DNA from: an uncultured Candidatus Micrarchaeota archaeon | GTDB taxonomy: Archaea > Micrarchaeota > Micrarchaeia > Anstonellales > Bilamarchaeaceae | Direction: 5' to 3' | Length of the DNA: 64,000 bases | Assembly: GCA_963804385.1 (NCBI GenBank) | Contig: CAWDQD010000007.1 | Span: 100-64,099 of the forward strand | Shown here: positions 5,229 to 62,813 of the stretch, piece after piece | Position numbering within the stretch: position 1 is the first letter of the stretch | Layout: each line of letters opens with the position of its first letter | Made by a program: the position numbers and the translations under genes | Notes under the pieces: model-generated | Told to the model about the DNA's origin: nothing | Databases searched by the model: none | The model's input: the letters and a program-made list of their open reading frames with translations, nothing else

Positions 5229-5251
5229 ATTCCATATTCCACCGACGTTCT

Positions 5252-10524: not shown

Positions 10525-10599
10525 TAATTGACATTATTTCTTATATTAAATATACTAAAAGATTTTCAGCGAAAAATGGATATAATTAAATAAAATTCC

Positions 10600-25657: not shown

Positions 25658-25723
25658 ATTCCTTTTGGTTTTTTTCAACAGATTTATAAGTCATAACTCC
25701 GTCATCAGATGAGAGGTGGAATC

Positions 25724-37628: not shown

Positions 37629-37632
37629 TGAA

Positions 37633-41655: not shown

Positions 41656-42956
41656 AGTCCATCCTCGCTGAAGATGAACGCGGAGGTTATGCCGTACCCC
41701 TCCCTGCCACGATAGAGGAGGTCCGTGCATCCGATCCTATCGATGAGAGCGACCTTGCCGTTTTCGAGCTGCCCTAGCCGCTGGTCCCCGCCGTTCGACA
41801 TCAGCAGCCCGTCCCTGATGTTCAATCCGAATGCCCGCGAGATCCTGAGCATGAGCTCCGCGACCTGCTCCACCATCAGCCCCTTCCTTGAGAAATCGGT
41901 GTATACCTTCAGCATGGACAATGTTTTCCCGTCATAGTCCATCCCGATCATGGAATGTCCGAAGCATGATCGCTTGAGTGCTATCCACAATCTTCCCTGG
42001 TGGAGGTCATACTCGTCCCGGGAATATCCTGCATCGCCCAGCTTCTCGACGACTACGTCCTCCTGTTCACTCACGTGGAACGTCACGTGGTCCCCGCGTA
42101 TCACGCTCCTGATCAGCGGATCCAGCCTGTTCGTCTTTGCGACGAGGTTCTTGCAATCCTGCTCGGATGCCAATCTCGAAAGCTCGCTCATCTGGGCAGT
42201 ATCCACCAGCCCATGCAGCATCTGGATGTTCGCCTCGAAGATCCTCCTGTTGATGGAGGCCAGGTAAGGCAGCTTAACGATATGGCTGAAATCGCCCGCG
42301 AATTCAGACGCGAGCGGCCGCTTGGTGTCCCTGTCGCAGCATAGGAGTCCGACCGGGTCTCCGCCCTTTATCAGCTGCTGGCCGTACACCGCGTGCGCCA
42401 CCCATTCCGGTATGCGGTCGAGCTCCAGGGCTCCAATCTCCGGGGAACCGCAGTCCGGGATTATTAGCGCGGTCTGGGGGCCGAGGAACCTCTCGCGGTA
42501 ATGCTGGTGCAGTTCCCCGTCGGTGTATATCCAATGCCCGAGATTCCAGAACAGGTTCCCGTTGGCATCGGTCACCATCGCTATCTTCTCGTCAGGGAAA
42601 CTCTCCTTGTGCCTAGCGACGTAGTCCTGGGGCGTGGAGCGCCGGAATAACGATGAGATCTGCCCGAAATACTCATCCATCCTCCCTCCAAGGTTCCCAT
42701 CTATGCAGCCCCTCACTGTGCCGTCGCCCCATGCATAACCGCTGGCGCGGGAATTGACCGCGGGGGTGATTTTCGTCCTCTCGGTGTCGACCATGGCGAA
42801 ATGGAAACCTACCATGGAATCCTTCATGATCTCGCCTTCGAAGAGGCTGATGCCGCTCCAGTCGCTCTTGCTCCTCATGCTCACGGTGCCGAACGGCATG
42901 TCGAATGCGGCCGGCGGCTTGTATCTCAAGCTCGGGGTCATCACGCCCGGCATCAT
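41652..42956 (-). CDS. hypothetical protein; the C-terminal third resembles phosphodiester glycosidase (NAGPA/DUF2233)
   Basis: Start MMPGVM, with an ATGA overlap at 42953-42956. HSMIGMDYDGKTLSMLKVYTD...GLMVEQVAELMLR..GLNIRDGLLMSNGGDQ resembles the family pattern R-x-x-G..dG..l.lv.vdG...G.tl.ela.lm...G...A.nLDGGGS, from memory. Confidence 0.45.
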   Translation of the reverse strand: MMPGVMTPSLRYKPPAAFDMPFGTVSMRSKSDWSGISLFEGEIMKDSMVGFHFAMVDTERTKITPAVNSRASGYAWGDGTVRGCIDGNLGGRMDEYFGQISSLFRRSTPQDYVARHKESFPDEKIAMVTDANGNLFWNLGHWIYTDGELHQHYRERFLGPQTALIIPDCGSPEIGALELDRIPEWVAHAVYGQQLIKGGDPVGLLCCDRDTKRPLASEFAGDFSHIVKLPYLASINRRIFEANIQMLHGLVDTAQMSELSRLASEQDCKNLVAKTNRLDPLIRSVIRGDHVTFHVSEQEDVVVEKLGDAGYSRDEYDLHQGRLWIALKRSCFGHSMIGMDYDGKTLSMLKVYTDFSRKGLMVEQVAELMLRISRAFGLNIRDGLLMSNGGDQRLGQLENGKVALIDRIGCTDLLYRGREGYGITSAFIFSEDGL

Positions 42957-44236
42957 ATGAACGACGTCCCTCCGGGATCCCCAGCGTTCCTTATGACGTC
43001 CAGGAATGCCTGGAACTCTTCGATCTCGCGCTCGGCCAGCCTCCCTTCGGAACTCAGCACTCCAAGGAGCGTGTTCGTCCGGTGGATCTTGCATGTGGGA
43101 GGGCAGACGCCGATCCTGCCTATGGCCGCTTTCCTCTCTACGGATTCCCATACCCTCTCCAATGGCTGCGAACGCAGGTCCCCGAGCAGGAAATCAGGAT
43201 TGCCGTCGCGTTCCGAGCACAGGTAGACGCGCCCGTCGTATGCGATGCTCGCCGCCCACGGGTGGCCGAGGCATGATTTGCAGTCCTTCCCGCCTATGGG
43301 CTGGCCGGCCGCGGCATCAACGAAATAATCATCCGCGATTATCGGGACGATCGGGTATCCGGATAATATCGCCTTCACTTCCTGGAAGTTCTCAATCGCC
43401 CTTCGAGCGACGTCCTGGGTTATCTGCTTCCTCAGGTCGCATCCGCTCTGCCCGTAATTAAGGACCGGGCGGTATCCGATGTAGCTGACCAGGGCCTTCG
43501 GATCCTTATCCAGCAGCTCCTTCGCGAACAGTGCGACGCTTCGCATGAATTCCACGTTGATACCGTTCACGATCATCCCGAGGCCGAAGCTCGTCTCGGT
43601 CCCGGAGAGCGCTGTCGCCATGAGCCTGATGTTCTCCTTAGCTTTGTGGTAAACCGCAGGATTCTTTATCCTGTGGAATCTCAGGTAATTCTCCTGGTCC
43701 GCGCTGTTGAAGCTCACCCTCACGAAACTTATGTTCGATTCGGCCAGGTCGGCGGCTTTCGCTTCATCGAACAGCGTGCCGTTCGTGAAAAAGCCGGTCT
43801 CGAATCTCTTCTTGCCCGCATACTTCAGGCCGTCTATGGTGCGCGGGTTGGTCATCGGTTCCCCGCCCCCTGTGAATATCACGCCGTTGACTCCTGCGTC
43901 TCCTATCTTGTCGAGCAGGTCCGTCATCACCTCGTACGGCATTATCCGTTTCCCGGCATCGGAGATCGTGCGCTCTTTCCAGAGCCGGTAGGTGCAATCG
44001 CCGCAGCTGAGGTTGCACTCCAGGGACGGCACGAGCTCCACCGTGATCGGTGTGACCTTCTCCGGCTCTCCGCGCAATACGTGCCCGATCCGTTCGCGGT
44101 GCCACAGCGCCTTGATATGGTGCTGCATGCCGATCGGGAATTCCGGCTTGAGCAATGAGATGACCCCGCGCTCCAAGCGGGCCAGCCGCTGATCAGCGCT
44201 GATTCTCGACTCTAATACTGGAATGAGCGTCTTCAT
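42953..44236 (-). CDS. radical SAM enzyme C with SPASM/twitch-like C-terminus
   Basis: CX3CX2C cluster CNLSCGDC, then FTGGGEPMTNP. C-terminal CKSCLGH...YLCSERDGNPDFLLGDLRSQPLERVWES...VCPPTCKIH. Own TATA (minus-strand aatataag, plus 44292-44299) and GGAGGGG upstream. Confidence 0.85.
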   Translation of the reverse strand: MKTLIPVLESRISADQRLARLERGVISLLKPEFPIGMQHHIKALWHRERIGHVLRGEPEKVTPITVELVPSLECNLSCGDCTYRLWKERTISDAGKRIMPYEVMTDLLDKIGDAGVNGVIFTGGGEPMTNPRTIDGLKYAGKKRFETGFFTNGTLFDEAKAADLAESNISFVRVSFNSADQENYLRFHRIKNPAVYHKAKENIRLMATALSGTETSFGLGMIVNGINVEFMRSVALFAKELLDKDPKALVSYIGYRPVLNYGQSGCDLRKQITQDVARRAIENFQEVKAILSGYPIVPIIADDYFVDAAAGQPIGGKDCKSCLGHPWAASIAYDGRVYLCSERDGNPDFLLGDLRSQPLERVWESVERKAAIGRIGVCPPTCKIHRTNTLLGVLSSEGRLAEREIEEFQAFLDVIRNAGDPGGTSFI

Positions 44237-44318: not shown

Positions 44319-44831
44319 CTATCCCAAAACGCTGGAAAACGGCTTCTTGAAGCCCGCCGGCGCTTTCTCCCACGCGGTTTCCAGCGCAAGATAGCCCGCG
44401 ACCCCGATGGCCATCCCGCCGAAGACGTCGAAGAATGTATGCACTCCCAGATAGACCCTGGTGAACGCGACGAACACGGCGAATGCGGTGTATATCCATC
44501 CGTTCGGTTTCTTCCATAATCCTGCCGCGAGGGCGAACGCGACGACCGCATTGCTGCTCGGGAACGAATAGCCGTCCGGGCATTGCACCTTGGATGGGAT
44601 CAACAAGCAGGGCCGTTGCTCCTGGACCAGGTATTTCACTCCGGTCCCCAGAAGATAGACGATCACGAGCGCCAGTATGAGGCGATTCCGCTTCTTGCCC
44701 TGTTCGGCGATGAACGCGATGATCAGGACGATCGCCAGGAACAGGAAGTCGTTGTCGATGAGCTGGGCTATGGGGGTAAGCAGGGGGATGCTCAGCTGGC
44801 TGGCCCACATGGTTATGATATCGAGCATCAT
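44319..44831 (-). CDS. PAP2-family phosphatase (candidate dolichyl/polyprenyl-diphosphate phosphatase)
   Basis: Motifs KYLVQEQRP, SFPSSNA (PSGH position) and FTRVYLGVHTFFDV (SRxxxxxHxxxD position). ATGA overlap with the AglB stop at 44828-44831. Confidence 0.7.
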   Translation of the reverse strand: MMLDIITMWASQLSIPLLTPIAQLIDNDFLFLAIVLIIAFIAEQGKKRNRLILALVIVYLLGTGVKYLVQEQRPCLLIPSKVQCPDGYSFPSSNAVVAFALAAGLWKKPNGWIYTAFAVFVAFTRVYLGVHTFFDVFGGMAIGVAGYLALETAWEKAPAGFKKPFSSVLG

Positions 44832-47779
44832 TTCCCCGTGTAGTACTGGTCCTGCATCCTGAAGATCCTCACTTTCGGCGAATCATAGACCAAATCGAAA
44901 CCAGGGATCGAGCCTAGCATGAACCCCTGGTACAGCGTGGAGCTGTAGAACGGGGTGGTCCGGTAGGCGTAGCTGCTTATCGGGTTGCCCAATGCATCGG
45001 TCCAGAGCTGCTCGTTGTCGTATATGGCCACGAACTGGAGGATGTTGTTGCTGTTGCTCGTGAGGATCCATCTTGCCGGGTGCAGCTGGAGGCTGCCGTC
45101 CTGGGTCTTGTTGTCGAGGTCGTATGTAACCAGGGCCTGCTGCCCGTTTATGGTCCCGACCACTCCGCAGTAGGCCGGAGGAGTGCTGTTCGAGGCGTAA
45201 TCCTCCTTGTAGACCAGGAAGCCCGTCAGGTTGGCCGAAACCGCGCATGCGGTCCCTCCCTGGGCCGGGGCGATTATGGTCTCCCACATGTGGTCTAGCT
45301 CGCAGGTCGATGTGCCGGGATCATGGTTCACGTCCGTCTGGTTGGCGTAGGCGCACGCGAGGTAGTTGAGCGCGCTGTACTTGCCTCCGAAGGAGATGTC
45401 CTGGTTGCTGTTGCCGCTGCCGAGCACCTCGATGTCCATCAGGGCGTACTGCGAACCGTATGCATTCATGGTGTTCCTGAGGTTGGACGCGTCTCCGTCC
45501 AGATAGGCGTAGGCCGTCGCCCCTATCATGTCCGAGCTGGCATGCTCGTTGCGGAGCACGGTGTCATGCATGCCGAAGAAGTTGATCCAGTGGCCATAGT
45601 CCCACCAGGATATGATGCGGCCGTCCGCAGGCACGTTGTCCTTTATCCATTCCATGGAGCTCATCCAGTAGTCCGGTATGAACGAGCAGCGGTATTGGAT
45701 GCCGCCCATTAGCTCCGGCGCGATGCCGGCAGAAGCGTTCCCGTCCAGGCTGTAGATGCACAGATCCTGGCTGAAGAACTGCACCGGGTCCGTTGTTATA
45801 TTGGCGATGTTCTGGGAAGCCGCGCAGAGAAGCGGGTTGGTCTGGCAGTAGCCGGCGAACCTGGCCGCCGTGGCTTGCGGAGCCTGCGTGAACGTAGGCG
45901 TGAAAGAAGTGAGCAGGATGCTGCCGCCCATCGATGGCGCCGGCGCTATCGGGAAACCCAGCTCCATCATCAGGACCAATACGACAAGCACCCACATGAT
46001 CGCGTTCAGGTCCGGTATCCTGCCTTTCAGCAGGTCGGCCGCCTCGCCGAAGACCGCCACCGTGGAGAATATCAGCGTCATGCCTAGGTATGTTATCAGC
46101 TTCTCCTTCTCGAGGCCCATGAACGTTATGGGGAGGATGAAGGATAGCAGCAGCAGAGCGTATATCGGCCACTTGCCTGTTTTGGCCGCCTTGAAGAACG
46201 ACACGAGCAGCAGCAGGATGCCCCAGAAGAAAAAGAGCGTCATCAGGGTGTCCGAGCGCTCTATTATCGGGAAATTGGCGGGTGCGCCGTTGGAGAATGT
46301 CAGCAGCGCGTTGAGCACCGAGGCTGTCCCGTTGAACAGCAGGTTGAACAGTATCGTGGGTATGGCGTTGATGAGGCCGACGGCGGATGTCACGATCCCC
46401 AGGGATCCCGTGCCTGTGAGCTGCATGGCGACGAATCCCAGCGTGTCGTCATAGACCGCCAGGCCCGGGGCCTGCTCGGCTATAGTCCTCTCGAGCGGCT
46501 GGGTATATGCGCCCCAATCCTCGTACGCGGTCATGAACTGCGCGAAGAACGACGTGTGCATGAAGATGAAACCCAGCACCACCAAGGAGCCGATCACGGC
46601 CCCGATGCGCTCGGTCTTGCCGATTTTCGGCGCGTAGCGGTCGAATACGAAATCCACCGCGAGCGGGAACGCCAGCGCGAGAGCGGGCAACCCGACATTC
46701 TCGAGGATGCCTTCGATCCCTGCCTTCAGATCCACCTGCGTCGAATACACGGTCAGGATGATCTGGACCAGGAGCATGCCGGCAAGGATCATCGCGAGCT
46801 GCTTGTTCCCCTTCTCATCCTTCTGCTGGATGTGGCGCAATCCCATGCAGAAGAAGAACACCGCGAGGCAGAAAGTGATGAGTATGTCCACGTTCGAGCC
46901 GAGCACCACGGCCCCGTAGGCGACGATGGCTAGCAGGGTGAACCTCATGGATTCGCGTTTGAGGGCTATGTAGAACATCGCGAGGAAGAAGAACAGCGCG
47001 AAGATGCTGTAGGGGACGATCTGCGCGTCGCCGCCCTGGAACTTGAGGAGGAAGAACGGCATGAAGGCCGTGAGGCCTGCCGCGAGTATGCCTGCGCGCT
47101 CGTCGTACATCTCCCTGAAGAACAAGTAGATGAAGAACACCGCGAGCCCTGCGGCGAGGGGCGGATAGACCGAGCCCACGCCGGTCAGGGTATAAGGCGA
47201 ATATGGCGCCTGCCCGTTGTACAGCGAGAACCATGGGGCGATCAGGTATTTGTAGAGCGGCTGGCCGAGGTGGTTCGACACGGTGAGCGGATACCACCCG
47301 GTCATGTCGTCGGCGAAGTTATGGCCGACCGTCACTATCTGGTGCACGCCTTCCAGGTAGAAGTACGGGTCCAGCTCGTAGAGCAGCCCCCCGGAAGAGG
47401 AGAGCGCGAGCCATACGGAGAGCGCGAGTATGAACAGCATCCCGATGGCCGGTGCGTTCGATTTGAGCGTGGCTATGTTCAGGCTCTTCATGCGCTCCTG
47501 GACGTCAGGGAACACCTTGTCCTTGTAGAGGAGCGCGACTCCTGCTATGAAGACGATGCCCCAGTTGATGAATATCCACGGAGTGGAATACAATATGCCT
47601 ACGAGGGATTCGAGGGTGAAGAGCAGCGGTACGGCGACCCAGCCCAGCGTATAGCCTATGAGCGTCTTGTCGATCGCGGATAGCTTCTCCTGGCGCAGGA
47701 ACCAGAACGCTAACGGTATGCCTGATGCGCCGAACGCCAAAGCGATCACGATTACCAATGGGATATCTGTGAAAAGCAT
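44828..47779 (-). CDS. aglB: archaeal oligosaccharyltransferase AglB (STT3 family)
   Basis: 983 aa. Multi-TM N-terminal half, WWDYGHWI catalytic motif and a large C-terminal soluble domain. Confidence 0.9.
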   Translation of the reverse strand: MLFTDIPLVIVIALAFGASGIPLAFWFLRQEKLSAIDKTLIGYTLGWVAVPLLFTLESLVGILYSTPWIFINWGIVFIAGVALLYKDKVFPDVQERMKSLNIATLKSNAPAIGMLFILALSVWLALSSSGGLLYELDPYFYLEGVHQIVTVGHNFADDMTGWYPLTVSNHLGQPLYKYLIAPWFSLYNGQAPYSPYTLTGVGSVYPPLAAGLAVFFIYLFFREMYDERAGILAAGLTAFMPFFLLKFQGGDAQIVPYSIFALFFFLAMFYIALKRESMRFTLLAIVAYGAVVLGSNVDILITFCLAVFFFCMGLRHIQQKDEKGNKQLAMILAGMLLVQIILTVYSTQVDLKAGIEGILENVGLPALALAFPLAVDFVFDRYAPKIGKTERIGAVIGSLVVLGFIFMHTSFFAQFMTAYEDWGAYTQPLERTIAEQAPGLAVYDDTLGFVAMQLTGTGSLGIVTSAVGLINAIPTILFNLLFNGTASVLNALLTFSNGAPANFPIIERSDTLMTLFFFWGILLLLVSFFKAAKTGKWPIYALLLLSFILPITFMGLEKEKLITYLGMTLIFSTVAVFGEAADLLKGRIPDLNAIMWVLVVLVLMMELGFPIAPAPSMGGSILLTSFTPTFTQAPQATAARFAGYCQTNPLLCAASQNIANITTDPVQFFSQDLCIYSLDGNASAGIAPELMGGIQYRCSFIPDYWMSSMEWIKDNVPADGRIISWWDYGHWINFFGMHDTVLRNEHASSDMIGATAYAYLDGDASNLRNTMNAYGSQYALMDIEVLGSGNSNQDISFGGKYSALNYLACAYANQTDVNHDPGTSTCELDHMWETIIAPAQGGTACAVSANLTGFLVYKEDYASNSTPPAYCGVVGTINGQQALVTYDLDNKTQDGSLQLHPARWILTSNSNNILQFVAIYDNEQLWTDALGNPISSYAYRTTPFYSSTLYQGFMLGSIPGFDLVYDSPKVRIFRMQDQYYTGK

Positions 47780-52673: not shown

Positions 52674-54001
52674 CTACTTCAGCACTTTCGCGATGGCCCT
52701 TTCCAGTTCCCCATCCTTGGTCTTCAGGGCGTAGCGGATATGCAGAATCGGTATCTTCAGCTTGAGGACTCGGGTTATGTCCACCGGAGTCCCGGAGACG
52801 ACTATCTCGGCCTTGCTCTTGTTTATGGTCTCTGTCAGCTCGTCGATCTGCTTGCCGTAATAACCTAAGGCTGGGATCACGCATCCGATGTGCTCGTACT
52901 TGGCATACATATCCTTTATGCTGCCGACAGCGAAAGGCCTCGGGTCTATGACATCAGCACCGTTGCGGGCCGCGTATTCGAATCCGGCCCCGAAGCTCAT
53001 GCCGCCGTGCGTTATCGTGGGTCCGTCCTCTATGACTATGACTTTTTTATCGTAGATGTTCATCTCCCTGGCCGGAGAGAGGTCCATATCAGCTTCGATT
53101 ACCATGGCTTTGGGATTGAACTTCTCTATGTTCTTGCGGATCCTCGCCGCATCCATCGGGTTCTCGCTCGTCTTGTTGATTATGATGACGTCGGCGGACC
53201 TGAAATTCGTCTCGCCTGGATAGTACAGCATCTCATGCCCCGGCCGGAGCGCGTCCGCGACAGTGAAATAGACGTCCGGCTTGATGAACGGCATGTCGTT
53301 GTTACCGCCGTCCCATATGATTATGTCCGCCTCTTTCTCGGCTTCCTTGAGTATGGCGGCATAGTCCACCCCTGCGAACACGACGATCCCGTTGTTCACG
53401 TGCCATTCGTATTCCTCCCTCTCCTCTATGGTGCACTTGGCCCTGTCCAGATCCTCCATGGTGGCGAAGCGCTGCACCCTCTGCTTCACGAGGTCGCCGT
53501 ACGGCATCGGGTGCCTGATCACAACGAACTTGGCCTTCTTCCTTTTGAGTATGTCGCCCAAAGCGACCGAGACCGCGCTCTTCCCCGCGCCTGTCCTCAC
53601 CGCCGTGACCGCTATGACCTTCTTGCTGCTTTTCAGCATGGTCTCGCGGGGCCCTAAGAGAACGAAACTCGCGCCTTTGGCCTGCACCCTTGAAGCGAGA
53701 TGCATGACATAGTCGTGCGAGACATCCGAATAGGAGAAATAGACTTCGTCTATGTGATGCTCGACGATGAGCGATTCCAGGTCCTTCTCCTCGAAGATGG
53801 GGATCCCTTTCGGATATAAGCTGCCGGAGAGCTCCGGAGGGTACTTCCTGTTCGCGATGTTCGGTATCTGGGTCGCTGTGAATGCGACTACTTCGAATGC
53901 GGCGTTATTTCGGAAAAAAACATTGAAATTGTGGAATTCGTGGGCTGCTACTGCAGCTAATCACGTCCCGCCGCTCCGAGTATTAGGACTTTTCTAGCCA
54001 T
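52674..54001 (-). pseudogene. COG2403-family P-loop protein (predicted GTPase / cyclic 2,3-diphosphoglycerate synthetase-like) with a 1-nt frame disruption after codon 14
   Basis: ATG at 54001-53999 gives MARKVLILGAAGRD, then TAG. The -1 frame continues LAAVAAHEFHNFNVFFRNNAAFEVVAFTATQIPNI...SYSDVSHDYVMHLASR... to 52674 with no start codon of its own. P-loop AVRTGAGKS. Confidence 0.7.
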
Positions 54002-55046
54002 GAGCTGATTCCTCATCTAGGATTTTTATTAGTTCCCTTCCCGTATCATTCAATGAATAAAAATTGAAATATGGTGCTGCATAGCCGTCAACGTGTTGTC
54101 GTTTTAATGTCACCAAGCCAAGGGTGGTGTCTTTAATCATTGCGTCTCGGACCGCCCAATGGGACCTTCGAGTCATTTTCACAAGATCATTTATCCTGCA
54201 CTCGCCTCTTGTTAATGCAGTCCAATATCTGATGTGGCTTCGAGGATACTCCTTTCTCTTATAGCAGTTAATCAGTTTTTTCCATTGCCTATTAGACGAC
54301 TTGAAATGCCCATCAAGTATGAGCCTGGTCATCAAATGCACTCCTCTTACTCCAATTTCGTTGGCCCCCTTGCTCTTTCTAACAGGCGCCGAATAACCAT
54401 ATACTCTTCTGAAGCAATCGACCAAATAATCTTTCATGACATTGTCCTTCACTGTAATTACAATGCCATGGAGGCAACCATTTCTCTGTATTACCGAACC
54501 ATCACCTACTTCGTATCCATCCAAAAAGGCCAAGATAAGTTCATTATCCTCACTTATTTTCACGAGCGCCTTTTTAGCAAGGAGATTAAAAAAAGCTGAA
54601 AATAACGTACTATTTACCCTAAGTTCGATATTATCGCTTCGTGCGAGACTAGCGAAATTAACAACAACCCAATCCACCCCTAACTGTTCAACCCATCTTT
54701 TTTTTACTTCAACACAATCTCTATTTGAAGTTTTAACATACGCTTTCCATCTATTGTGATTAATTTGGAGACTTTTGCTAATAATAGATTTAAACTTCAA
54801 AACTAAATCCTTCTCGCAATTAGAGATTCCGATACCACTATATGTCTTGCTTCCTTCCGCAGAATAAAAACCTATAGCCCAAGCCAAGTCTCTATCAACT
54901 GAAATAGTGCGGGGCAATGTTAACATTGACCGTTTTGAAATCCCACGTATCCTTATTGTCTGCTTATCTTTGAAAATAACCGCCCCAATTTCTGCAAATT
55001 CTTCACTATCGATAATCGGCCAAGCTTTCATAACTTCCGTCATCAT
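53994..55046 (-). CDS. LAGLIDADG-type homing endonuclease-like protein with C-terminal winged-helix region
   Basis: Two dodecapeptide-like motifs, LAWAIGFYSAEGSK and ILAFLDGYEVGDGSV. The gene is visibly AT-richer than its neighbours. Its stop overlaps the ATG of the COG2403 gene. Confidence 0.65.
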   Translation of the reverse strand: MMTEVMKAWPIIDSEEFAEIGAVIFKDKQTIRIRGISKRSMLTLPRTISVDRDLAWAIGFYSAEGSKTYSGIGISNCEKDLVLKFKSIISKSLQINHNRWKAYVKTSNRDCVEVKKRWVEQLGVDWVVVNFASLARSDNIELRVNSTLFSAFFNLLAKKALVKISEDNELILAFLDGYEVGDGSVIQRNGCLHGIVITVKDNVMKDYLVDCFRRVYGYSAPVRKSKGANEIGVRGVHLMTRLILDGHFKSSNRQWKKLINCYKRKEYPRSHIRYWTALTRGECRINDLVKMTRRSHWAVRDAMIKDTTLGLVTLKRQHVDGYAAPYFNFYSLNDTGRELIKILDEESAHG

Positions 55047-55227: not shown

Positions 55228-56073
55228 ATGCGCATAGTTGTGGCACTCGGAGGCAACGCTCTTCTCAAGAAGGGCGCCACTGCGAAGGAGCAGCGCTCGT
55301 CAGCCAAGGCCGCGCTCGACCATCTCGCATCGGTGCTCGATTCTCACGAGGTCGCGCTCACGCACGGCAACGGCCCGCAGGTCGGCTCGCTACTCCTGCA
55401 GCAGCACGCGACCAGGAAAGTCCCGGAGATGCCTCTCGACGTGCTCGATGCCATGACGCAAGGCGAGATAGGGTATTTCATCCAGAGCTCGCTTCCGAGG
55501 AAATCCGCTGTTCTTTTGACCCGAGCTCTAGTGGATGAGAAAGATCCCGCATTCAGGAATCCTACCAAACCGATCGGCCCTTTCTATAAGGAGAAGCACT
55601 CGGGAATGCGCATGGATTCTGGAAGGGGATACAGGTTGGTCGTTCCATCTCCGGAGCCATTAGCCATACTGGAAAAAGATGCTATACTTTCGCTCATGCG
55701 TTCCGGTTTCGTCGTGATATGCGGAGGCGGAGGGGGCATCCCGGTCTCAAAAACAGGCAAGGGCGTGGAAGCGGTGATAGACAAGGACCGGTTCTCTTCT
55801 CTCCTGGCATCTTCGGTCCGCGCGGACATCATCATCTTCATAACTTCCGTGGACGAGGTCTACTCCGATTTCGGCAAGAGATCGCAGAAGGCCATACGGA
55901 AGATGTACGCTGACGAGCGTACTCGTTTCGCGGAAGGCAGCATGGGGCCCAAAGTCGAATCCGCGATACGGTTCCTGAAGAAAGGCGGCAAGAAGGCGAT
56001 CATCTGCTCGATAGACAACGTCCAGGCCGCGCTCAAAGGCAAGGCAGGCACCACCATCATAAATCGACGATGA
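55228..56073 (+). CDS. arcC: carbamate kinase
   Basis: MRIVVALGGNALLKKG...VALTHGNGPQVG... is typical of the carbamate kinase N-terminus. At 281 aa it is slightly short for the family. Confidence 0.8.
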   Translation: MRIVVALGGNALLKKGATAKEQRSSAKAALDHLASVLDSHEVALTHGNGPQVGSLLLQQHATRKVPEMPLDVLDAMTQGEIGYFIQSSLPRKSAVLLTRALVDEKDPAFRNPTKPIGPFYKEKHSGMRMDSGRGYRLVVPSPEPLAILEKDAILSLMRSGFVVICGGGGGIPVSKTGKGVEAVIDKDRFSSLLASSVRADIIIFITSVDEVYSDFGKRSQKAIRKMYADERTRFAEGSMGPKVESAIRFLKKGGKKAIICSIDNVQAALKGKAGTTIINRR

Positions 56074-56485
56074 AGAACGCCTTCCAGACATTGCTCTTCT
56101 CTACCTTGAACATGTGCCAGCTCACGGCTTTCGCATCAATTAAGAGGGTCTGCTTCGTGGGGTCCAGATGGTCCCCGAGCATGGTCGCCGTGAGTTTCAT
56201 GCCCTTTTCCGCCTTCTCTATCTTCAGCTTGTATTCCCTGAATAGCAGGAGCTCCGCGTCTTTGAGGTACAGCAGCTCCTGGAGGAAATCATGCAGAAGG
56301 AACTCCGCGTCTTTCGCTTCGAGGGTGAATCTCTTCTCCGCATTCACGCCCAGCTCCTTCGGGTCCTTGATCATCGTGCTCGTGAGGGCCTCGCCGCAGC
56401 TGGCGAAAAGCTCCTCGAGCGTCTTTCCCGAAGCTTCGAAGGCGACATCCGCCATCGCGAAGCCTTCGACGGATTTGTAAGGCAT
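56057..56485 (-). CDS. archease (RtcB activator)
   Basis: FAMADVAFEASGKTLEELFASCGEALTSTMI plus the C-terminal KAVSWHMFKVEK match the archease pattern. Confidence 0.8.
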   Translation of the reverse strand: MPYKSVEGFAMADVAFEASGKTLEELFASCGEALTSTMIKDPKELGVNAEKRFTLEAKDAEFLLHDFLQELLYLKDAELLLFREYKLKIEKAEKGMKLTATMLGDHLDPTKQTLLIDAKAVSWHMFKVEKSNVWKAFFIVDL

Positions 56486-56511: not shown

Positions 56512-57375
56512 TTAAATGGTTCTCAATCTCTCGAGCGCCTGCCTTATGGCCTTCTCGTGCTTCTCATCCCCGATGAACACCAGCTCTGTCATCTGGCATC
56601 CCATGGGCTCCATCGTGTGCCTTCCAGAGACATAGCTCATGAAGAAATCCCCCTTATCCGTTTTCACGAAGCCCTTGGCCCGGATTATGTCGTTCGGGAG
56701 AGTGTCCAGCAATGCCATGAACTTCTCATAGTCCACGCTTCCGCAGGTGAAATCGAAATACCCTGGATTGTGGGATTCGTGCGACGTCTCCCGGATGACC
56801 CGGTCATTTCGTTTCAACCCGAATATCCTATCCATCCCGATATCGCAACGCTCGACCGCCATTATCTCCGCGCGCGGATTCAGCTTCATCAGGCCTATCT
56901 CTATATCGTTTATCTCAGGGACCAGATCCTTCTTGTTCAGGAGTATCAAATCAGCGAGCTCGATCTGTTCCATCCCGGTGTGGCCGATGTTCGGCGATTT
57001 GAGTAGCGCGTCCGCATCGACTATCGTGATGACCGCGTCCAGGCTGACCGATTCCATACGTGCGATGTCGCGCGCTATTTCGGAAGGTTCCGCCAGGCCC
57101 GTAGTCTCGATGACTATTGCATCCGGCTTGGACATGGAGATCAGCTCGTTTATGGCTGCCATGAGCTCCCCTGACAATGAGCAGCAGATGCACCCGCCGG
57201 TCAGCTCAATCACCTTCACGCTCTTCCCTTCGAGCACCCTGCCGTCTATGCCTATCCTGCCGAACTCGTTCATTAGCACCGCTATTTTTTTCCCGGAGTC
57301 GGATATGATCCTGCGGAGGAGCGTGGTCTTCCCGGCACCAAGATAACCGGTCACGAGTATAACATGAGTCTTCAT
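56512..57375 (-). CDS. CobW/COG0523-family GTPase metallochaperone
   Basis: Walker A GYLGAGKTTLL and the GCICCS metal motif. Confidence 0.8.
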   Translation of the reverse strand: MKTHVILVTGYLGAGKTTLLRRIISDSGKKIAVLMNEFGRIGIDGRVLEGKSVKVIELTGGCICCSLSGELMAAINELISMSKPDAIVIETTGLAEPSEIARDIARMESVSLDAVITIVDADALLKSPNIGHTGMEQIELADLILLNKKDLVPEINDIEIGLMKLNPRAEIMAVERCDIGMDRIFGLKRNDRVIRETSHESHNPGYFDFTCGSVDYEKFMALLDTLPNDIIRAKGFVKTDKGDFFMSYVSGRHTMEPMGCQMTELVFIGDEKHEKAIRQALERLRTI

Positions 57376-57380
57376 AACGA

Positions 57381-58463
57381 TCAGAAGAATGAGTCTATAT
57401 CTCTCCTTTCGAACCTTTCCGCAAGGATCCCTATCGCCTTCTTCTCTATCTGCTCGACCCTCTGCTTGCTGAACCCCAAAACAGCTCCCGCCTCTTCATA
57501 CGTGCGTTCGTGCCGGATATCCAAGCCGAACCGCACCTCCAGGACCCTGGCATAATGAGCATAGATCGCCGGGAGCTTGGACAGCACGTGCCTCACGACG
57601 CTCTTCCTGACGGAATCCTCTTCGATCGATCTGGCTTGCTCGGTATCCGGAGGCACGTCGTTCTTTTTCGCCTTGCCTTTCTTCTCATCCGCATCCAAGG
57701 ACGTTCTCGCGATTTTCCGGATGCCGTATTTCTTGACCCTGGCGAGGAGGATATTAGCGCCTTTGGCTATCTGCCTGTCTGTGGGGTCTTTCCCATTCTT
57801 CGTCACGAAATTGTTAGTGAACGCGATGGCCCTCACGGTCTCATAATCCAGGAGCCTCGAAGTCTTGACATCCGTCACCCATTTGTTCGCCTCATCGATC
57901 ATATAGCGTCTTACCCACGCTTTGGCGTATGTCATGAACCTGTTTCCGAGCTCTGGCCTGAATTTCCTTATGGCATCCCTGAGGATAGCTTCATTACCGA
58001 CGCTTACCAAGTCCTCTATCCCGATCCTCGTCGCACCCGCCTTTTTCGCGAGGACCTGCATCGCTATCTTATAGACCATGCCCTGGTTGGCTTGGACGAT
58101 GGCTTCATCGGCGAGCTTCACCACCTGCTCTTTCTCCGAGATCTTCTTCTCCACTATCACAACATCGCCGTTGACCGCTTCTGCGAGCTCGGCCTTCAAT
58201 CCAGCGATCTCTTCCTTGGCGCTCTTGCGGATACCGAATACCCACCGCTCTTCCTGCCTGCTGATGGTGGGGGTGTCTTTCCTTGTGATCCTGCTTTTTT
58301 CCACCCTTTCTCCGAGGGATCGGACCATCTCCTTCAGCTTCTGGATATCAGCCGCGCTGACCGGCTGCTTCATTATGCTCTCGGCCAGAACAGGATTGGA
58401 CCTCTTCTTGGGTTTTTCCCAGCTTGGCTTGAGCTGATGGTTTTTGGCTAAAGCTGATTGCAT
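57381..58463 (-). CDS. bacterial-type sigma-70 family protein, paralogue 1
   Basis: Region 2: [41 protein letters not shown] (E. coli RpoD: [39 protein letters not shown]). Region 4: [43 protein letters not shown]. Confidence 0.8.
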   Translation of the reverse strand: [360 protein letters not shown]

Positions 58464-58486
58464 ATCCTCCGATTTGATTAGTTTTG

Positions 58487-58494
58487 TTTATAAA
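58487..58494 (-). promoter_or_regulatory. TATA box TTTATAAA upstream of sigma paralogue 1
   Basis: 24-31 nt upstream of the ATG (58463). Embedded in a roughly 50-nt block conserved with 59534-59584. GGAGG lies 3-7 nt upstream of the ATG. Confidence 0.6.
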
Positions 58495-58510
58495 TAGTCA
58501 ATTTCGTGGT

Positions 58511-59536
58511 TCATTCGTATGAACGGATGCCTGCTCTCTTGAGCGCCTTGGTCAGATTCTTCTTCGCTCGCGTCTCTATCTGGCCGATGTTCCCCCTCGT
58601 GCATCCTTTCATATCTGCCAATTCCTGCATGGTGTAGCCCATCACGTGCCTCAATACAAGGATCTTAGCATGTTCTGGAAGGATGGTGGATAAGCAGCGT
58701 TGGACCTGGCAATCCTGGAACATCCTGGCTTCCAGCGAAACCCCATTGCCGGCTACCTTCTCATGCATTCCGACGTCATTATTCGTATCCAGGCTCAATG
58801 CTATCCCTTTTCTTATGTCATATTTCCCTACTCTGGATAGCTTCACTTTGGCTCCGGCCGATATCTCCATCTCGCTGGGCTCCGTGCCGTTAGCTTCGCG
58901 GTAGCTGGCGGCGTATGCCGATACCCTATGCTGCTCATCCATGACATACCTCGGCACTTTCAAGTCGCTTCTATGGGCATCTGCTTCGGTCACCATATCT
59001 CTCCTGACCCATGACGCGGCATACGTCATGTACCTGCCCCTTTTCCAATCGAACCTGTCCATCGTATACTTGATCATCGATTCGGTGCCGACCGACACCA
59101 GGTCCTCATGGGAGCTCTTGCTGGTTCTTCTCTTGGACAGCACTTCCCTCGCGATCATATGGAGCATGCCTTGGTTGGCGCACACGATGGCGTCGGTAGC
59201 GAGCCCTATCGTCTCCTCTTTGAGTTCTATCTCCTCATTCAATCTCCTGATAGCCGCAGTCCTCTTCCAAGGGGTCGCTTCGAGTGTTTTCCTCAATTCC
59301 CGGAGCTCTTTCACGGCGGCGCCGCGGGCCTTGAAAACCCATCGCTCCTCATCCCTGCTCAGAGTGGGGTTATTGCTTCTGGCTTTCATGCTGATGACGA
59401 GTTTCGCGCTGAGCGTCCGGTTGATGTCTCTAAGCTTATCTACGTCCGCCTTCTGTATGCCCTCATGCATGACCGTGAGCTTCGGCTTTCTCGCGCTTGG
59501 CCTTGGCTGGGCAATCTTCGCTACAGCTAGCTGCAT
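58511..59536 (-). CDS. bacterial-type sigma-70 family protein, paralogue 2
   Basis: Region 2: DLVSVGTESMIKYTMDRFDWKRGRYMTYAASWVRRDMVTE. Region 4: AKILVLRHVMGYTMQELADMKGCTRGNIGQIETRAKKNL. Region 1.2-like: LSRDEERWVF. Confidence 0.8.
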   Translation of the reverse strand: MQLAVAKIAQPRPSARKPKLTVMHEGIQKADVDKLRDINRTLSAKLVISMKARSNNPTLSRDEERWVFKARGAAVKELRELRKTLEATPWKRTAAIRRLNEEIELKEETIGLATDAIVCANQGMLHMIAREVLSKRRTSKSSHEDLVSVGTESMIKYTMDRFDWKRGRYMTYAASWVRRDMVTEADAHRSDLKVPRYVMDEQHRVSAYAASYREANGTEPSEMEISAGAKVKLSRVGKYDIRKGIALSLDTNNDVGMHEKVAGNGVSLEARMFQDCQVQRCLSTILPEHAKILVLRHVMGYTMQELADMKGCTRGNIGQIETRAKKNLTKALKRAGIRSYE

Positions 59537-59559
59537 ATTCTGGGATTTGGCTAGTTTTG

Positions 59560-59567
59560 TTTATAAA
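59560..59567 (-). promoter_or_regulatory. TATA box TTTATAAA upstream of sigma paralogue 2
   Basis: Same 24-nt spacing to the ATG (59536) as at paralogue 1. Confidence 0.6.
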
Positions 59568-59584
59568 TAGTTATATTTCGTGGT

Positions 59585-61064
59585 CTAGCCCTTCACGTTC
59601 CCGATCGGCACCAGCTTCACTACCTTGTGCGAGATGCCTGCGTTGTGCGCGGTCTCTATCACGGAGTCGATGTCCTTGTACGCTCCGCCCGCCTCTTCTG
59701 CGAGCCCTGCGAGCGAAGTGGTCTTAACATAGATGCCCCGTCCTTCCATGTCCTTCTGGAGCTGGTCCCCGCGGTATAGCTGCTTCGCCCTTGTCCTGCT
59801 CATCGTTCTGCCGGATCCGTGCGCTGTGGTATACCACGTCTGCGCTGCGGTTTCGACTCCTGCGAGAAGCCAGGATCCCGTCTCCATGCTTCCGCCGATG
59901 ATTATCGGCTGGCCGTCCTCGCGGTATTTCGGTGTGACATATTCCGAGCCCGGCCCGAACGCGGCCGTCGCTCCTTTCCTGTGCACTATGAGCTCTTTCA
60001 TGGAGCCGTCCACCTTGTGCTTCTCCACCGAAGCGCGGTTGTGAGCGACATCATATACCTGGTGCATGCCCAGGTTCTCCGCATCCGTCGCGAACACCGA
60101 GGAGAATACCTCGCGCACGCGATGAAGGATCGTCTGGCGGTTGGCGAAAGCTCATATTCATCGCGCATTTCATGGCAGAGAAATAATCCTGCCCCTCCTT
60201 CGAGCTGAAAGGAGCGCTCGCGAGTTCGCGGTCGAGTATCTTGATATTGTATTTGCTCTCCATGACCTCGAGGAAAAGGCTTAGATAATCCGTAGCGACC
60301 TGGTGGCCGAAGCCGCGACTGCCGCAGTGGAACATGATCGACTATCTGGTCAGGGAATATGCCCCACTTCTTGGCTAGCGCCTTGTCTATTATGTTCTCT
60401 TCCTTCACGTGTTGTATTTCCAGGTAATGGTTCCCGCTTCCTAAAGTCCCTATCTGATCTTTCCCACGCTCCACAGCCCTGATGGCTAACAGTATTATTG
60501 TCAGCAGTCCTTCTCCCTTCCCCCGAGTTCCGTGCTCGCGAGGTCCTCGTCCCATCCGTAGCCGTTCGCGATGCACCATTCCGAGCCCTCCTCGACTACC
60601 TTCCTGAACAAGGGCGCGTCCAGGTGCACGAAGCCCCTGCTGCCGACTCCAGCCGGAACTTTCTTGAATAAAGCATCCACAATTCGTGGAGTTTCGGTTT
60701 CACATCGTTGTAAGTCAAATCCGTTCTTATCAACTTCATGCCACAATTGATGTCATACCCTATCCCGCCAGGGGATATGACACCGTCGTTAGCTATGTCC
60801 ATCGCCGCGACCCCTCCTATGGGGAATCCGTAGCCGCTGTGCCCGTCAGGCATGCAGAACGCGTAGTTCACTATCCCGGGCAGCGTGGCGACGTTCGTGA
60901 TTTGCTCAAAAACATGGAGGTCCATCGAATCCAGTATGTCCTTGCTCGCGTATATCCTCGCGGGGACCCGCATCCCAGGCTTGAAATCCCTTGCTTATCT
61001 CCCAGATATAATCGGAAATCTTCGTGAACTCTGGCTTCTTGAATTCGTTTCTCTGGAAATCCAT
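59585..61064 (-). pseudogene. rtcB: RNA 3'-phosphate ligase RtcB, split over six reading-frame segments
   Basis: Segments in order: MDFQRNEF..ISKGF (ORF 60906..61106), MRVPARIY..CMPDGHSGYGFPIGGV..DVKPKL (60596..60973), ALFKKVPAGVGSRG.. (60501..60746), GTLGSGNHYLEIQ (59998..60579), [18 protein letters not shown] (60051..60335), [23 protein letters not shown] (59585..60118). Confidence 0.8.
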
Positions 61065-61137
61065 CAATGACACCTGCAGAATTTGTAGATAAATATACGA
61101 ACGCAAGTTAAATTAAGGTTGGTGGGCAAACTAGTAC

Positions 61138-61938
61138 GTGGTCAGCATGTCTAGCAAGGGCGAAGGATCGGATTTCATCTCACAGGCGCGTACTTTGGCG
61201 GCAGGGACAAGGGAGCCTTACATCGCATGGTCATACCTCAAGCGGTGGTCGAGCGGCAAGGGGCCTCTCGCCATGAAGGCTGCCATGATGGGCTTCCTCG
61301 AGCAGCACGGCTCCAAGCCTGAAGCCGCGGCCATACTTCCGGAGATAATCCGGAACGCCGCGATGCTCCCTCCGTCCGAGCGCAACAGCATAACGGAATT
61401 CACCAACCAGTCGTTCTCATCGATCGCAGGATTCAGCCGGCCGGGGCAGGTCGCTCCCGGATTCGGCCCCAACAAGCAGCAAAAGCCGCAGTTCTCGGTC
61501 CTGAAGCTCAAGCAGGCGGCACCTCTCACAGGCGCGAACGGGCGCTTCGAGATGGACCATTTCGCATCCATGCGGAACGAGGTGCTTAGGGTGAACGAAT
61601 CGGTCATACAAGCCGGCAAGCTCCCTCCGCCGAAGAACGCGGAGGTCCATAACATCAACCGCGAGAGCTTCAAGCCTGTCCTGGGCGCGCAGAAGAGCCA
61701 CGCGATTCTATCTTCGTTAATAGACCGCGTCCGCTCGCACGGGATGAACGAATCCGTCCATACATTCAAGGCGAAACCCGCGAAACGATCCAAATCCAGG
61801 GCCAAGGCGAGGCCGAAGGCCAGGGTGAAGGCCAAGCCGAAGGCTAAAAAGAGGGCCATGGCAAGGGTAAAAGCCAGGAAAACCGCTGCCAAGGCAAGGA
61901 AAAGGCCGATCCGCAAGACGAAAAAGAGGTCGAGATGA
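61138..61938 (+). CDS. hypothetical protein with an extremely basic Lys/Arg/Ala-rich C-terminal tail
   Basis: 266-aa ORF (non-ATG start in the track). Tail: KAKPAKRSKSRAKARPKARVKAKPKAKKRAMARVKARKTAAKARKRPIRKTKKRSR. Confidence 0.5.
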   Translation: MVSMSSKGEGSDFISQARTLAAGTREPYIAWSYLKRWSSGKGPLAMKAAMMGFLEQHGSKPEAAAILPEIIRNAAMLPPSERNSITEFTNQSFSSIAGFSRPGQVAPGFGPNKQQKPQFSVLKLKQAAPLTGANGRFEMDHFASMRNEVLRVNESVIQAGKLPPPKNAEVHNINRESFKPVLGAQKSHAILSSLIDRVRSHGMNESVHTFKAKPAKRSKSRAKARPKARVKAKPKAKKRAMARVKARKTAAKARKRPIRKTKKRSR

Positions 61939-62813
61939 TTAGGGCGTCGTCTTTCTTGCTCTTCGCATTGGTCCTGCTGGTCCCTATCTCTTTCGCTGCG
62001 ATATCCGTCATGACCGTCTCCGGGCAGCTCGACCAGTCCGGGGTGGCGACGCTCATAATAGCATCCGAGCTTTCCGATTCCCAGGGGAAGCAGATATACC
62101 TGAACCTCTCGCATGACGTGGATTCGGTCGTGGTCAAGGACCGGAGCGGCCTCCAGCTCGGATCCACTGTGAAGCAAGTCGGGAATTACACCCTGATATA
62201 CGCTACAGTCCCGACGGATTACGTGGAATTCGACATCTCATCGGATTCATTCACCTCTAAAGTGGGCTCTGACTGGATGTTCGATCTGGGCATAAGCTCG
62301 TCCGAGGACGTGGGCGTGTTCAACGCCACCATCGCGTTCCCGGACGGGACGGCGCTCCGGAGCACCAACGGCATGGTCGAGAACGACGGCAATACGCTGA
62401 GCGTGACCTGGTCCGGCACGAATATGGGCCAGGGAGATAGGGCGCGCATCCAGGCCGGCTATTTCGTATCCCAGACCTCGGACAGCATGCTGCCTTTCCT
62501 AGTGCTCGGAGCCGTGGCCATCATCCTGCTGGCCGTGTTCTCATATACGCGCTCGCACAAGGAATCCCCTGCGGTCCCCAGCCCAGCGCTCGAGTCCAGC
62601 CTGTTCAAGACGCTAGACGAGACCGACAAGGAGATAATCCGCGAGATATCCGCGCAGAATGGCAGGACGACCCAAGCGCATCTCTTCCTGAACACGCATA
62701 TCCCCAAGGCGACTCTCTCGCGACGACTCGCTTCGTTGGAGAACCGGGGGCTGATAACCCGCTCCCAGAAAGGCAACCGCAACCTGGTGACTTTGGGCGG
62801 CGCTTTGAAGTAG
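61935..62813 (+). CDS. membrane-anchored winged-helix regulator (extracellular domain - TM - cytoplasmic wHTH)
   Basis: ATGA overlap with the upstream gene. N-terminal signal/TM, second TM MLPFLVLGAVAIILLAVF, C-terminal IIREISAQNGRTTQAHLFLNTHIPKATLSRRLASLENRGLITR. Confidence 0.6.
   Translation: MIRASSFLLFALVLLVPISFAAISVMTVSGQLDQSGVATLIIASELSDSQGKQIYLNLSHDVDSVVVKDRSGLQLGSTVKQVGNYTLIYATVPTDYVEFDISSDSFTSKVGSDWMFDLGISSSEDVGVFNATIAFPDGTALRSTNGMVENDGNTLSVTWSGTNMGQGDRARIQAGYFVSQTSDSMLPFLVLGAVAIILLAVFSYTRSHKESPAVPSPALESSLFKTLDETDKEIIREISAQNGRTTQAHLFLNTHIPKATLSRRLASLENRGLITRSQKGNRNLVTLGGALK

Follow-up and report, generated by a model that had tools for sequence, protein, structure and literature searches.

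Sigma factors define transcription initiation in bacteria, whereas archaea, in the usual view, require only TBP, TFB and TFE. Here we analyze two tandem sigma-70-like genes, s1 and s2, that lie in a window of 64,000 nucleotides (nt; positions 100 to 64,099 of contig CAWDQD010000007.1, assembly GCA_963804385.1) from an uncultured Candidatus Micrarchaeota archaeon. The closest described systems are the sigma-70 genes (fam00359) of DPANN archaea reported by Castelle et al. 2021 (PMC8204110), which are prevalent in Woesearchaeota and for which mis-binning was ruled out, no anti-sigma factors were found and the mechanism was left open. The genomes of DPANN archaea encode TBP, TFB and TFE (PMC8204110), rpoS-like genes have been reported from DPANN viruses and from a DPANN prophage (2025 study, PMC12647753), and a distant homology of sigma and TFB has been argued for (PMC4581349). 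The novelty implied by the original prediction, made from the letters of this DNA alone, was consequently too high, as DPANN sigma-70 genes were already on record (PMC8204110) and NCBI already names Micrarchaeota sigma factors. Full-text literature searches returned no functional study, no description of the Micrarchaeota locus and no interaction of a sigma factor with the archaeal RNA polymerase (RNAP).

The window shares with the DPANN sigmas of Castelle et al. a bacterial-type sigma-70 open reading frame (ORF) on an otherwise archaeal DPANN contig, as well as genomes that carry TBP, TFB and TFE and no evident anti-sigma factor. In contrast, s1 and s2 belong to a separate Micrarchaeota clade distinguished by an ANQG motif, an NGD linker and a basic N-terminus, and they occupy a fixed RtcB-sigma-CobW-archease locus with a conserved promoter box. 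Identity between the window proteins and the sigmas of Woesearchaeota and Nanoarchaeota is only about 23-25%. New details here are the conserved locus, an old tandem duplication, a sigma-specific promoter box and a gradient from canonical to derived sequences in one archaeal lineage.

The two ORFs of 360 and 341 amino acids (aa) exist exactly as originally described, and they encode genuine sigma-70 family proteins that contain sigma2, sigma3 and sigma4 and are closest to the primary-like groups 1 and 2. The sigma-70 domains are upheld by hidden Markov model (HMM) searches, in which s1 matches Pfam Sigma70_r2 at 35 bits (cutoff 24) and Sigma70_r4 at 31.1 bits (cutoff 24.1), while s2 matches Sigma70_r4 at 31.8 bits. 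The Sigma70_r2 score of s2, 21.5 bits, falls slightly under its cutoff, with s2 covered by its structure and by TIGR02937, the NCBIfam model of the sigma-70 superfamily, which both proteins exceed (71.5 bits for s1 and 62.5 bits for s2; cutoff 42.9). Across the wider clade, Sigma70_r2 (at E <= 1) and Sigma70_r4, which represents the region 4 helix-turn-helix, each match 15/15 members, and the Pfam model for region 3 matches nine of the 15. The models for RpoD_Cterm, cyanobacterial RpoD, FliA and RpoS align end to end with s1 and s2, at scores far under their equivalog cutoffs. A profile built from the six closest family members recovers SigA/RpoD chains from the PDB at E 1e-26, and hhalign against an alignment of bacterial RpoD gives 99.7% probability over residues 115-339, corresponding to regions 2.1-4.2 and including region 3. 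AlphaFold2 models (predicted local distance difference test score 82.5 for s1, 85.0 for s2) are all-helical and place sigma2, sigma3, a disordered linker and sigma4 in the expected layout, with helices at 203-260 of the s1 model representing sigma3. In the PDB, Foldseek pairs both models best with group-1 sigma factors only, all of them in holoenzyme structures, and the alignments span about 300-370 columns. The two window proteins are 33% identical to each other over their full length (E 4e-54), and s2 is an older paralogue of s1.

Regions 2, 3 and 4 of the original assignment thus stand on profiles, hhalign, AlphaFold2 and Foldseek; region 1.2, which it had also included, does not. The Pfam model Sigma70_r1_2 (PF00140) matches 0/15 family members and hhalign does not extend N-terminal of residue 115, such that the resemblance is one of motif only (PT[IL]SR[EDQ]EE..VF versus PLLTxEEE). 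Within this motif, E72 falls on the conserved glutamate of region 1.2 in at least 90% of 52 aligned sequences; MAFFT, in contrast, did not place this part correctly against E. coli RpoD, as the region is not conserved. Region 1.1 (PF03979) gives no match in s1 or s2.

Comparison with the established sigma-70 groups sets the window proteins apart from each. With RpoD, SigA and RpoS they share the domain order of sigma2, sigma3, 3.2 linker and sigma4 and have their best profile and structure matches. A place within group 1 is nevertheless contradicted by scores of 74.8 and 47.5 bits with TIGR02393 (RpoD_Cterm; cutoff 354), with all RpoD/SigA models far under cutoff for both proteins, by the lack of a profile match to regions 1.1 and 1.2, and by altered recognition residues. 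Scores for the group 3 models (FliA/WhiG, SigB/F/G) are similarly far below threshold (TIGR02479, 63.8 against 189.6 bits; TIGR02980, 45.8 against 234), and the presence of a sigma3-length segment, aligned by hhalign, argues against the extracytoplasmic function sigmas of group 4. MzaA, the sigma of the MZA anti-phage system, is excluded by a score of 59 bits against a cutoff of 800 (NF041931).

The family to which s1 and s2 belong is small, and its members come from Micrarchaeota-like DPANN archaea only. Out of 1.84 billion cluster representatives, no more than 12 reach E-values below 1e-30, with a drop from 570/548 to 159 bits. The next tier (P0243-P0264) carries the hallmarks of the clade, namely L[ST]R[ED]EE..[IV]F, an NGD that forms a turn in a helical linker of about 40 residues, and, within region 2.1, ANQG[MLI]V where bacteria have ANLRLV; in the bacterial sigmas inspected in full, NLRLV occurs in 6/6 and NQG in 0/6. 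The phylogeny of the two proteins, obtained as a neighbor-joining tree, places the window genes in separate s1 and s2 clades, each with 100% bootstrap support, and likewise recovers a narrow six-member clade at 100%. All 15 Micrarchaeota-type members group together at 66%, while a DPANN-wide clade receives only 2%, and the window clade is not grouped with the sigmas of Woesearchaeota or Nanoarchaeota. The tandem duplication thus predates the divergence of the window's close relatives, and since both paralogue clades are fully supported and some relatives harbor one sigma, the duplication is old and was followed by losses. Orthologs of s2 are found in P0109 (58% identity) and P0110 (49%), and the P0110 contig has a further gene after the s2 ortholog.

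The nearest representatives outside the family are mixed (Clostridia, cyanobacteria and unnamed sequences), and the matches in the candidate phyla radiation (CPR)/Saccharibacteria are just 28% identical. A scan of GTDB species representatives with the family alignment returned ordinary bacterial sigmas and two DPANN sigmas and no close relative, the window's genus apparently not being represented there, or being masked. A motif-based metagenome scan was also of no use for finding relatives: the motifs are generic to sigma-70, 80/80 loci proved to be ordinary bacterial sigmas, and none of these 80 loci has RtcB, cobW or archease nearby. Elsewhere in DPANN archaea, an unrelated Woesearchaeota CG10 genome (L021) carries two tandem sigma-70 genes of 389 and 471 aa (9605-10774 and 10780-12195), and tandem sigma pairs may be recurrent in DPANN. 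A Nanoarchaeota contig (L040) encodes a 262-aa sigma that has a beta-CASP RNase on one side and a proteasome alpha subunit on the other.

The contig itself is that of a Micrarchaeota-like DPANN archaeon and not of a bacterium, a conclusion drawn from archaeal marker genes, the relatives of its RuBisCO and the Micrarchaeota names of the sigma relatives. Of the archaeal surroundings originally listed, Bud32 (assigned to KEOPS), Cdc48 and STT3/AglB were recovered and are joined by replication factor A, archaeal RqcH, Lrp, archease and RtcB. The nearest named relatives of the form II/III RuBisCO are from Micrarchaeota (80%) and Bilamarchaeum (79%), followed by Aenigm-, Woese-, Pace- and Nanoarchaeota, and NCBI names close members of the sigma family, two of them in the next tier, 'sigma-70 family RNA polymerase sigma factor [Candidatus Micrarchaeota archaeon]'. 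The sigma pair is native to this contig in composition, with a tetranucleotide z of 0.2 and with a GC content at third codon positions (GC3) of 0.68-0.71 and a relative synonymous codon usage (RSCU) correlation of 0.77-0.79, like its neighbors. Ratios of nonsynonymous to synonymous substitution (dN/dS) of 0.20-0.22 for s1 and 0.40 for s2, compared with 0.07-0.19 for neighboring genes, indicate purifying selection with a fast clock, and the sigma genes are among the fastest evolving of their block.

The order RtcB-sigma(-sigma)-CobW-archease recurs on at least 11 independent contigs (JGI, ENA, Logan, NCBI). A larger block, comprising a DUF7343 protein, a basic protein, RtcB, sigma, CobW, archease and an amino-acid kinase, is alike in L001/L002, L004, L007, L049, L050, L051 and L052, which derive from different samples, with a single sigma at the locus in L001/L002 and L004 and the s2-s1 pair in L007. 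The synteny extends to the deeply diverged genomes GCA_033853355.1 (P0243) and GCA_040758595.1 (P0247, named Micrarchaeota by NCBI), whose sigmas are 27-30% identical to those of the window, as against 77-82% for RtcB. An ancestor of the lineage acquired a bacterial-type sigma gene, and vertical inheritance has kept it in one chromosomal place, between RtcB and CobW-archease. A further Micrarchaeota-type sigma, P0245 (L053, 10001-11041), lies between two GMP-synthase subunit genes near archaeal PurP genes; given this different context, the sigma family extends beyond the RtcB locus, and a single genome may contain several copies.

The view that the feature is an assembly chimera, bacterial contamination or a pair of decaying pseudogenes would gain from the neighboring RtcB gene, whose six frameshifts make local quality or decay a concern. 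However, both sigma ORFs are intact, evolve at dN/dS of 0.2-0.4 and are native in composition, and the recurrence of the RtcB-sigma and sigma-cobW junctions in the independent contigs effectively refutes an artefact, leaving this explanation scarcely credible. The sigma genes are neither contamination nor a chimera nor a recent transfer, and the earlier description of them as domesticated is well founded in composition, selection and synteny across many independent assemblies.

The residues that serve bacterial initiation bear on what a sigma factor is retained for in an archaeon. In bacterial sigmas the Q406/E407 pair contacts the beta-prime clamp helices, Y425 and W433 are aromatic residues that melt the -10 element, and R588 lies in the helix that reads the -35 element. 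Alignment to E. coli RpoD, the numbering of which is used throughout, shows that in the window's subfamily Q406/E407 are replaced by S/C/N/A and V, Y425 by N/G/F, W433 by A/S/R/F and Q437 by R, with T440/R441 also changed. In the -35-reading helix, R584/E585/R588 are K/Q/E in s1; E585 and R588 are replaced in both window proteins, and R584 is retained in s2. Among the canonical -10 and -35 set (Y425, Y430, W433, W434, Q437, T440; R584, E585, R588), both proteins keep only Y430 and W434; outside this set they retain D403, G408, N409 (T in s2), F419, G424, R436 and the general helix-turn-helix of region 4.2. Residues invariant in 15/15 family members include D403, F419, G424 and Y430, and W434 is present in 13/15.

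Charge is altered as well. The N-terminal ~60 residues have a net charge of +8 compared with -19 for region 1.1 of E. coli, and the 3.2 finger linker, at -1 compared with -11, is neutral or rich in lysine. Both proteins have an isoelectric point (pI) of about 9.8, in contrast to 4.7 for RpoD/SigA, with a net charge of +19 to +21 (9.85 and +21 for s1), and all 15 family members have a pI of 9.1-10.2. The window proteins thus differ from RpoD/SigA in these residues, in a non-acidic finger, in their charge and in being encoded in an archaeon behind archaeal promoters. The deeper Micrarchaeota members (P0243, P0247 and others), by comparison, are nearly canonical relative to RpoD, including the SRERVRQIE motif, and over regions 2-4 P0243 shares 35-45% identity with ordinary bacterial sigmas.

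This gradient bears directly on the possibility that the proteins serve the archaeal RNAP as genuine initiation or melting factors: with sigma2 docked on the Rpo1 clamp coiled-coil, they would assist in opening or choosing a subset of promoters, as general factors alternative or auxiliary to TBP and TFB. The Rpo1 clamp coiled-coil, homologous to the beta-prime clamp helices, is the site that TFE and Spt4/5 use. The best argument for such a role is that the deeper members retain nearly all of the canonical core-binding, -10-melting and -35-reading residues, to which may be added the invariant positions named above, a full sigma2-sigma3-sigma4 architecture under purifying selection, the lack of anti-sigma factors and the open mechanism in DPANN (PMC8204110), and the argued homology of sigma and TFB (PMC4581349). 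Set against it are the loss of Q406/E407 (S/V), Y425 and W433 in the window's subfamily, its non-acidic 3.2 linker, the literature searches without a sigma-archaeal RNAP interaction, and the lack of enrichment of sigma-type promoter motifs at the locus, where a scan of 56.0-61.3 kb for bacterial-type promoters found 3 compared with 3.7 expected, none on the gene strand. We regard this role as unlikely, though it is the main alternative to the reading proposed below. For Micrarchaeota sigmas in general, it is rather more doubtful still that they dock on the clamp coiled-coil and select or melt promoters alongside or instead of TFE/TFB. A sigma function in archaeal transcription nonetheless keeps a claim on attention because the deeper members have preserved near-canonical motifs after long vertical inheritance; if true, sigma docking on archaeal RNAP would make a natural hybrid of the two initiation systems, bacterial and archaeal.

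The genes are wired to archaeal promoters. The conserved blocks of roughly 50 nt first noticed upstream of each gene are real and correspond to the whole intergenic spacers, each of which starts right after the stop codon of the upstream gene. The two spacers match at 41/48 aligned columns (85%; manual count), compared with 33% identity for the proteins encoded downstream, and have in common the exact 19-mer CTATTTATAAACAAAACTA, present in only 2 copies in the window where 0 are expected. Each spacer combines a ACCACGAAAT box with the TATA box TTTATAAA, and the predicted distance of 24 nt from the latter to the ATG proved accurate, with 23 nt between them and the ATG starting at the 24th base. 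As a TATA-like motif also lies at -26 to -32 from the start codon of six other window genes, including those for RuBisCO and the amino-acid kinase, the sigma spacers display the normal leaderless promoter geometry of this contig, in line with the original proposal of an archaeal TATA-type promoter for each gene, and a leaderless transcript is predicted from the s1 spacer. A bacterial-type promoter in the spacers was considered and discarded, since TTGACT occurs in the s1 copy only and no acceptable -10 element lies at 16-18 nt. The combination CCAYRAART-N4-9-TWTAWAA was found only before sigma genes, in the window and at eight related loci, and the ACCACGAAAT/TATA arrangement persists in degenerate form in the deeply diverged L049 and L051. 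In the window, ACCACGAAAT with at most one mismatch occurs at 10 sites compared with 3.2 expected, and is paired with a TATA box only at the two sigma promoters.

A sigma-70 gene that is kept under purifying selection across an archaeal lineage, duplicated and wired to archaeal promoters is of interest in itself: such retention means that the protein is of use even with its usual partner enzyme missing. With moderate confidence, and on sequence grounds, we propose that the window proteins are free DNA-binding regulators that would modulate initiation by TBP, TFB and the archaeal RNAP, with co- or autoregulation based on the shared box. Sigma-70 devoid of region 1.1 binds promoter DNA in the absence of core enzyme, and free DNA binding by s1 and s2 is suggested because they have no acidic region 1.1 and no acidic finger, have lost the beta-prime-contacting pair and are very basic. 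The window's subfamily would no longer work as a canonical bacterial initiation factor; instead, it would bind DNA sequence-specifically via the sigma4 helix-turn-helix, perhaps with a contribution of sigma2/sigma3, and once bound would modulate TBP/TFB/RNAP initiation. The two genes are probably co- or autoregulated through their promoter box, and their output is possibly tied to the RtcB-CobW-archease RNA-ligation module. DNA binding by a sigma4-like helix-turn-helix, with an effect on TBP/TFB-dependent initiation, is the proposed mode of action and is shared with archaeal regulators related to sigma region 4, such as HTH_10/Bat-type and LuxR-type proteins; one HTH_10 protein is encoded in the window. 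These regulators, however, consist of the helix-turn-helix only, whereas the window proteins retain complete sigma2 and sigma3.

Several observations weigh against the proposal of free DNA-binding regulators. A mere helix-turn-helix regulator would not easily account for the near-canonical motifs of the deeper members, which hint at an RNAP-like partner. A regulon search of the 64-kb window and the related loci found the ACCACGAAAT-TATA combination only at the sigma genes themselves, and a different factor could bind the box. Promoter conservation alone is not exceptional, because between genomes the RtcB promoter reaches about the same conservation (39/50 positions); it is the specificity of the box, not its conservation, that singles out the sigma promoters. 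Charge is weak evidence, because some bacterial non-primary sigmas are likewise basic, and the adjacency to RtcB, CobW and archease may be historical and not functional. Material for experiments is provided by the gradient that runs from near-canonical proteins (P0243-type) to strongly derived ones (window-type), by the two paralogues, by the identifiable promoter box and by the fixed neighborhood of RtcB, CobW GTPase and archease. This material addresses whether sigma domains can take on the role of ordinary DNA-binding regulators or can engage the archaeal RNAP, and bears on both the proposed deep homology of sigma and TFB and the mixed bacterial and archaeal gene sets of DPANN.

Two further explanations, which take up roles raised in the original prediction, fare less well than the DNA-binding regulator. 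One is that the proteins target the bacterial RNAP of a neighbor or host, for example as an exported effector, or that the organism itself carries a bacterial-type core. While the deeper members do look like competent bacterial sigmas, and genes elsewhere in the genome lie beyond the 64-kb window, the proteins have no signal peptide or secretion context, the window promoters are archaeal-type, and DPANN genomes encode TBP, TFB and TFE (PMC8204110). The beta-prime-binding QE pair (Q406/E407) has moreover been lost in the window's subfamily, which makes a role with a bacterial partner's RNAP less likely. Known Micrarchaeota hosts are themselves archaea (Thermoplasmatales), and taken together we judge this explanation highly improbable.

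The other is viral origin, in which the genes would be remnants of a virus or mobile element, such as a prophage sigma, that serve the element and not the cell. The best PHROG match of the window proteins is indeed a phage sigma family (phrog_351; HMM E 1.6e-27) that shares a compact sigma2-sigma4 organization without region 1.1, rpoS-like genes have been reported from viruses and a prophage of DPANN archaea (PMC12647753), a LAGLIDADG ORF of foreign character is found at a distance of about 2.3 kb, and fast evolution, duplication and loss would all suit a mobile gene. In contrast to phage sigmas, however, s1 and s2 have no viral context and are vertically inherited in cellular genomes: the block contains no viral hallmark or phage genes, a scan of viral contigs gave no relative, the best BFVD match (E 5.7e-8) is weaker than those to cellular sigmas in the PDB, and native composition is accompanied by the same housekeeping synteny across deeply diverged genomes. 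Defence-system context is also lacking, the single PADLOC match reflecting only the shared sigma domain of MzaA with no partner genes. For the present locus a viral origin is thus improbable.

Table 1. Coordinates of the sigma-70-like genes, their parts and promoter spacers, and other features of the window (nt positions in the window; aa, residues of the protein).
Feature	Position	Strand	Remarks
s1, sigma-70-like gene 1	57381..58463	minus	intact ORF
s1 basic N-terminal region	aa 1-66		
s1 1.2-like motif and helical linker	aa 67-117		
s1 sigma2	aa 118-200		
s1 sigma3	aa 201-257		
s1 3.2 linker	aa 258-282		non-acidic
s1 sigma4	aa 283-352		
s2, sigma-70-like gene 2	58511..59536	minus	intact ORF
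s2 sigma2	aa ~113-193		
s2 sigma4	aa ~273-334		
s1 promoter spacer	58464..58510	minus	47 nt, entire intergenic region
s1 spacer, box ACCACGAAAT	58501-58510	minus	
s1 spacer, TATA box TTTATAAA	58487-58494	minus	23 nt, then ATG
s2 promoter spacer	59537..59584	minus	48 nt, entire intergenic region after RtcB stop codon
s2 spacer, box ACCACGAAAT	59575-59584	minus	
s2 spacer, TATA box TTTATAAA	59560-59567	minus	23 nt, then ATG
RtcB RNA ligase gene	59585..61067	minus	directly upstream of s2; Pfam RtcB on fragments
CobW/COG0523-type GTPase gene	56512..57375	minus	Pfam cobW, CobW_C
Archease gene	56057..56485	minus	Pfam Archease E 1e-31; last of co-directional block
Divergent pair, first gene	61138-61938	plus	
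Divergent pair, second gene	61935-62813	plus	
LAGLIDADG-like ORF	53994-55046	minus	350 aa
SRP RNA	4972-5232	minus	
HTH_10 protein	5358-6062		
Archaeal RqcH (NFACT) homologue	17691-18668	plus	
Proline/threonine-rich ORF	18758-19087	plus	follows RqcH
Form II/III RuBisCO	25709-27142	plus	
Ig-like/CarboxypepD_reg surface protein	31939-36375		1478 aa
Radical-SAM genes	36504-44236		four genes, one with SPASM
AglB/STT3	44828-47779		

The genes next to the sigma pair are closely packed (Table 1). As cobW starts 5 nt past the s1 stop codon, shares 4 nt with the sigma ORF in L051 and has no TATA motif upstream, s1 and cobW are probably carried on one transcript. Archease occupies the same position in L002, L049 and L051. 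The RtcB gene of the window departs from the intact orthologs of L004, L001 and L007 by six single-nucleotide indels (five insertions and one deletion), none within a long homopolymer, which divide it into four frame segments by tblastn. Its last 188 codons are 96% identical to L004 and the remaining long ORFs nearby are all intact, such that the indels represent either recent pseudogenisation or local assembly errors.

Beyond RtcB, a divergent pair of genes flanks the RtcB-sigma block in L004, L049, L050, L051 and L052, the contigs that extend far enough. One encodes a basic protein that has a long K/R/A-rich tail, lacks any Pfam match and keeps pace with the sigma genes in its evolution (29-32% identity at equal depth), and the other ends in a DUF7343/HTH_24 winged helix and apparently has a membrane-spanning segment. 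On the opposite side, about 2.3 kb from the sigma pair, the free-standing LAGLIDADG-like ORF sits in a low-GC patch and is clearly foreign, with a GC3 of 0.38 compared with about 0.75 for the contig and an RSCU correlation of -0.26. It resembles a recently inserted mobile homing-endonuclease gene, and the block differs between relatives at this point.

Elsewhere in the window, the RuBisCO, of a form typical of DPANN and CPR, has metagenome relatives at 97% and 91% identity. For the signal recognition particle (SRP) RNA, the bacterial large-SRP model (cutoff 60, thus above) and the archaeal model (cutoff 96.5, thus below) both give about 72 bits; the RNA appears atypical or reduced and was discarded as a domain marker for its ambiguity. 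The RqcH homologue covers only the N-terminal half of a 645-position model and is followed by a proline/threonine-rich ORF, and the gene may be split or truncated. Finally, the four radical-SAM genes are preceded by the Ig-like/CarboxypepD_reg surface protein and lie beside AglB/STT3, a cluster that may be a surface-glycan or peptide-modification island.

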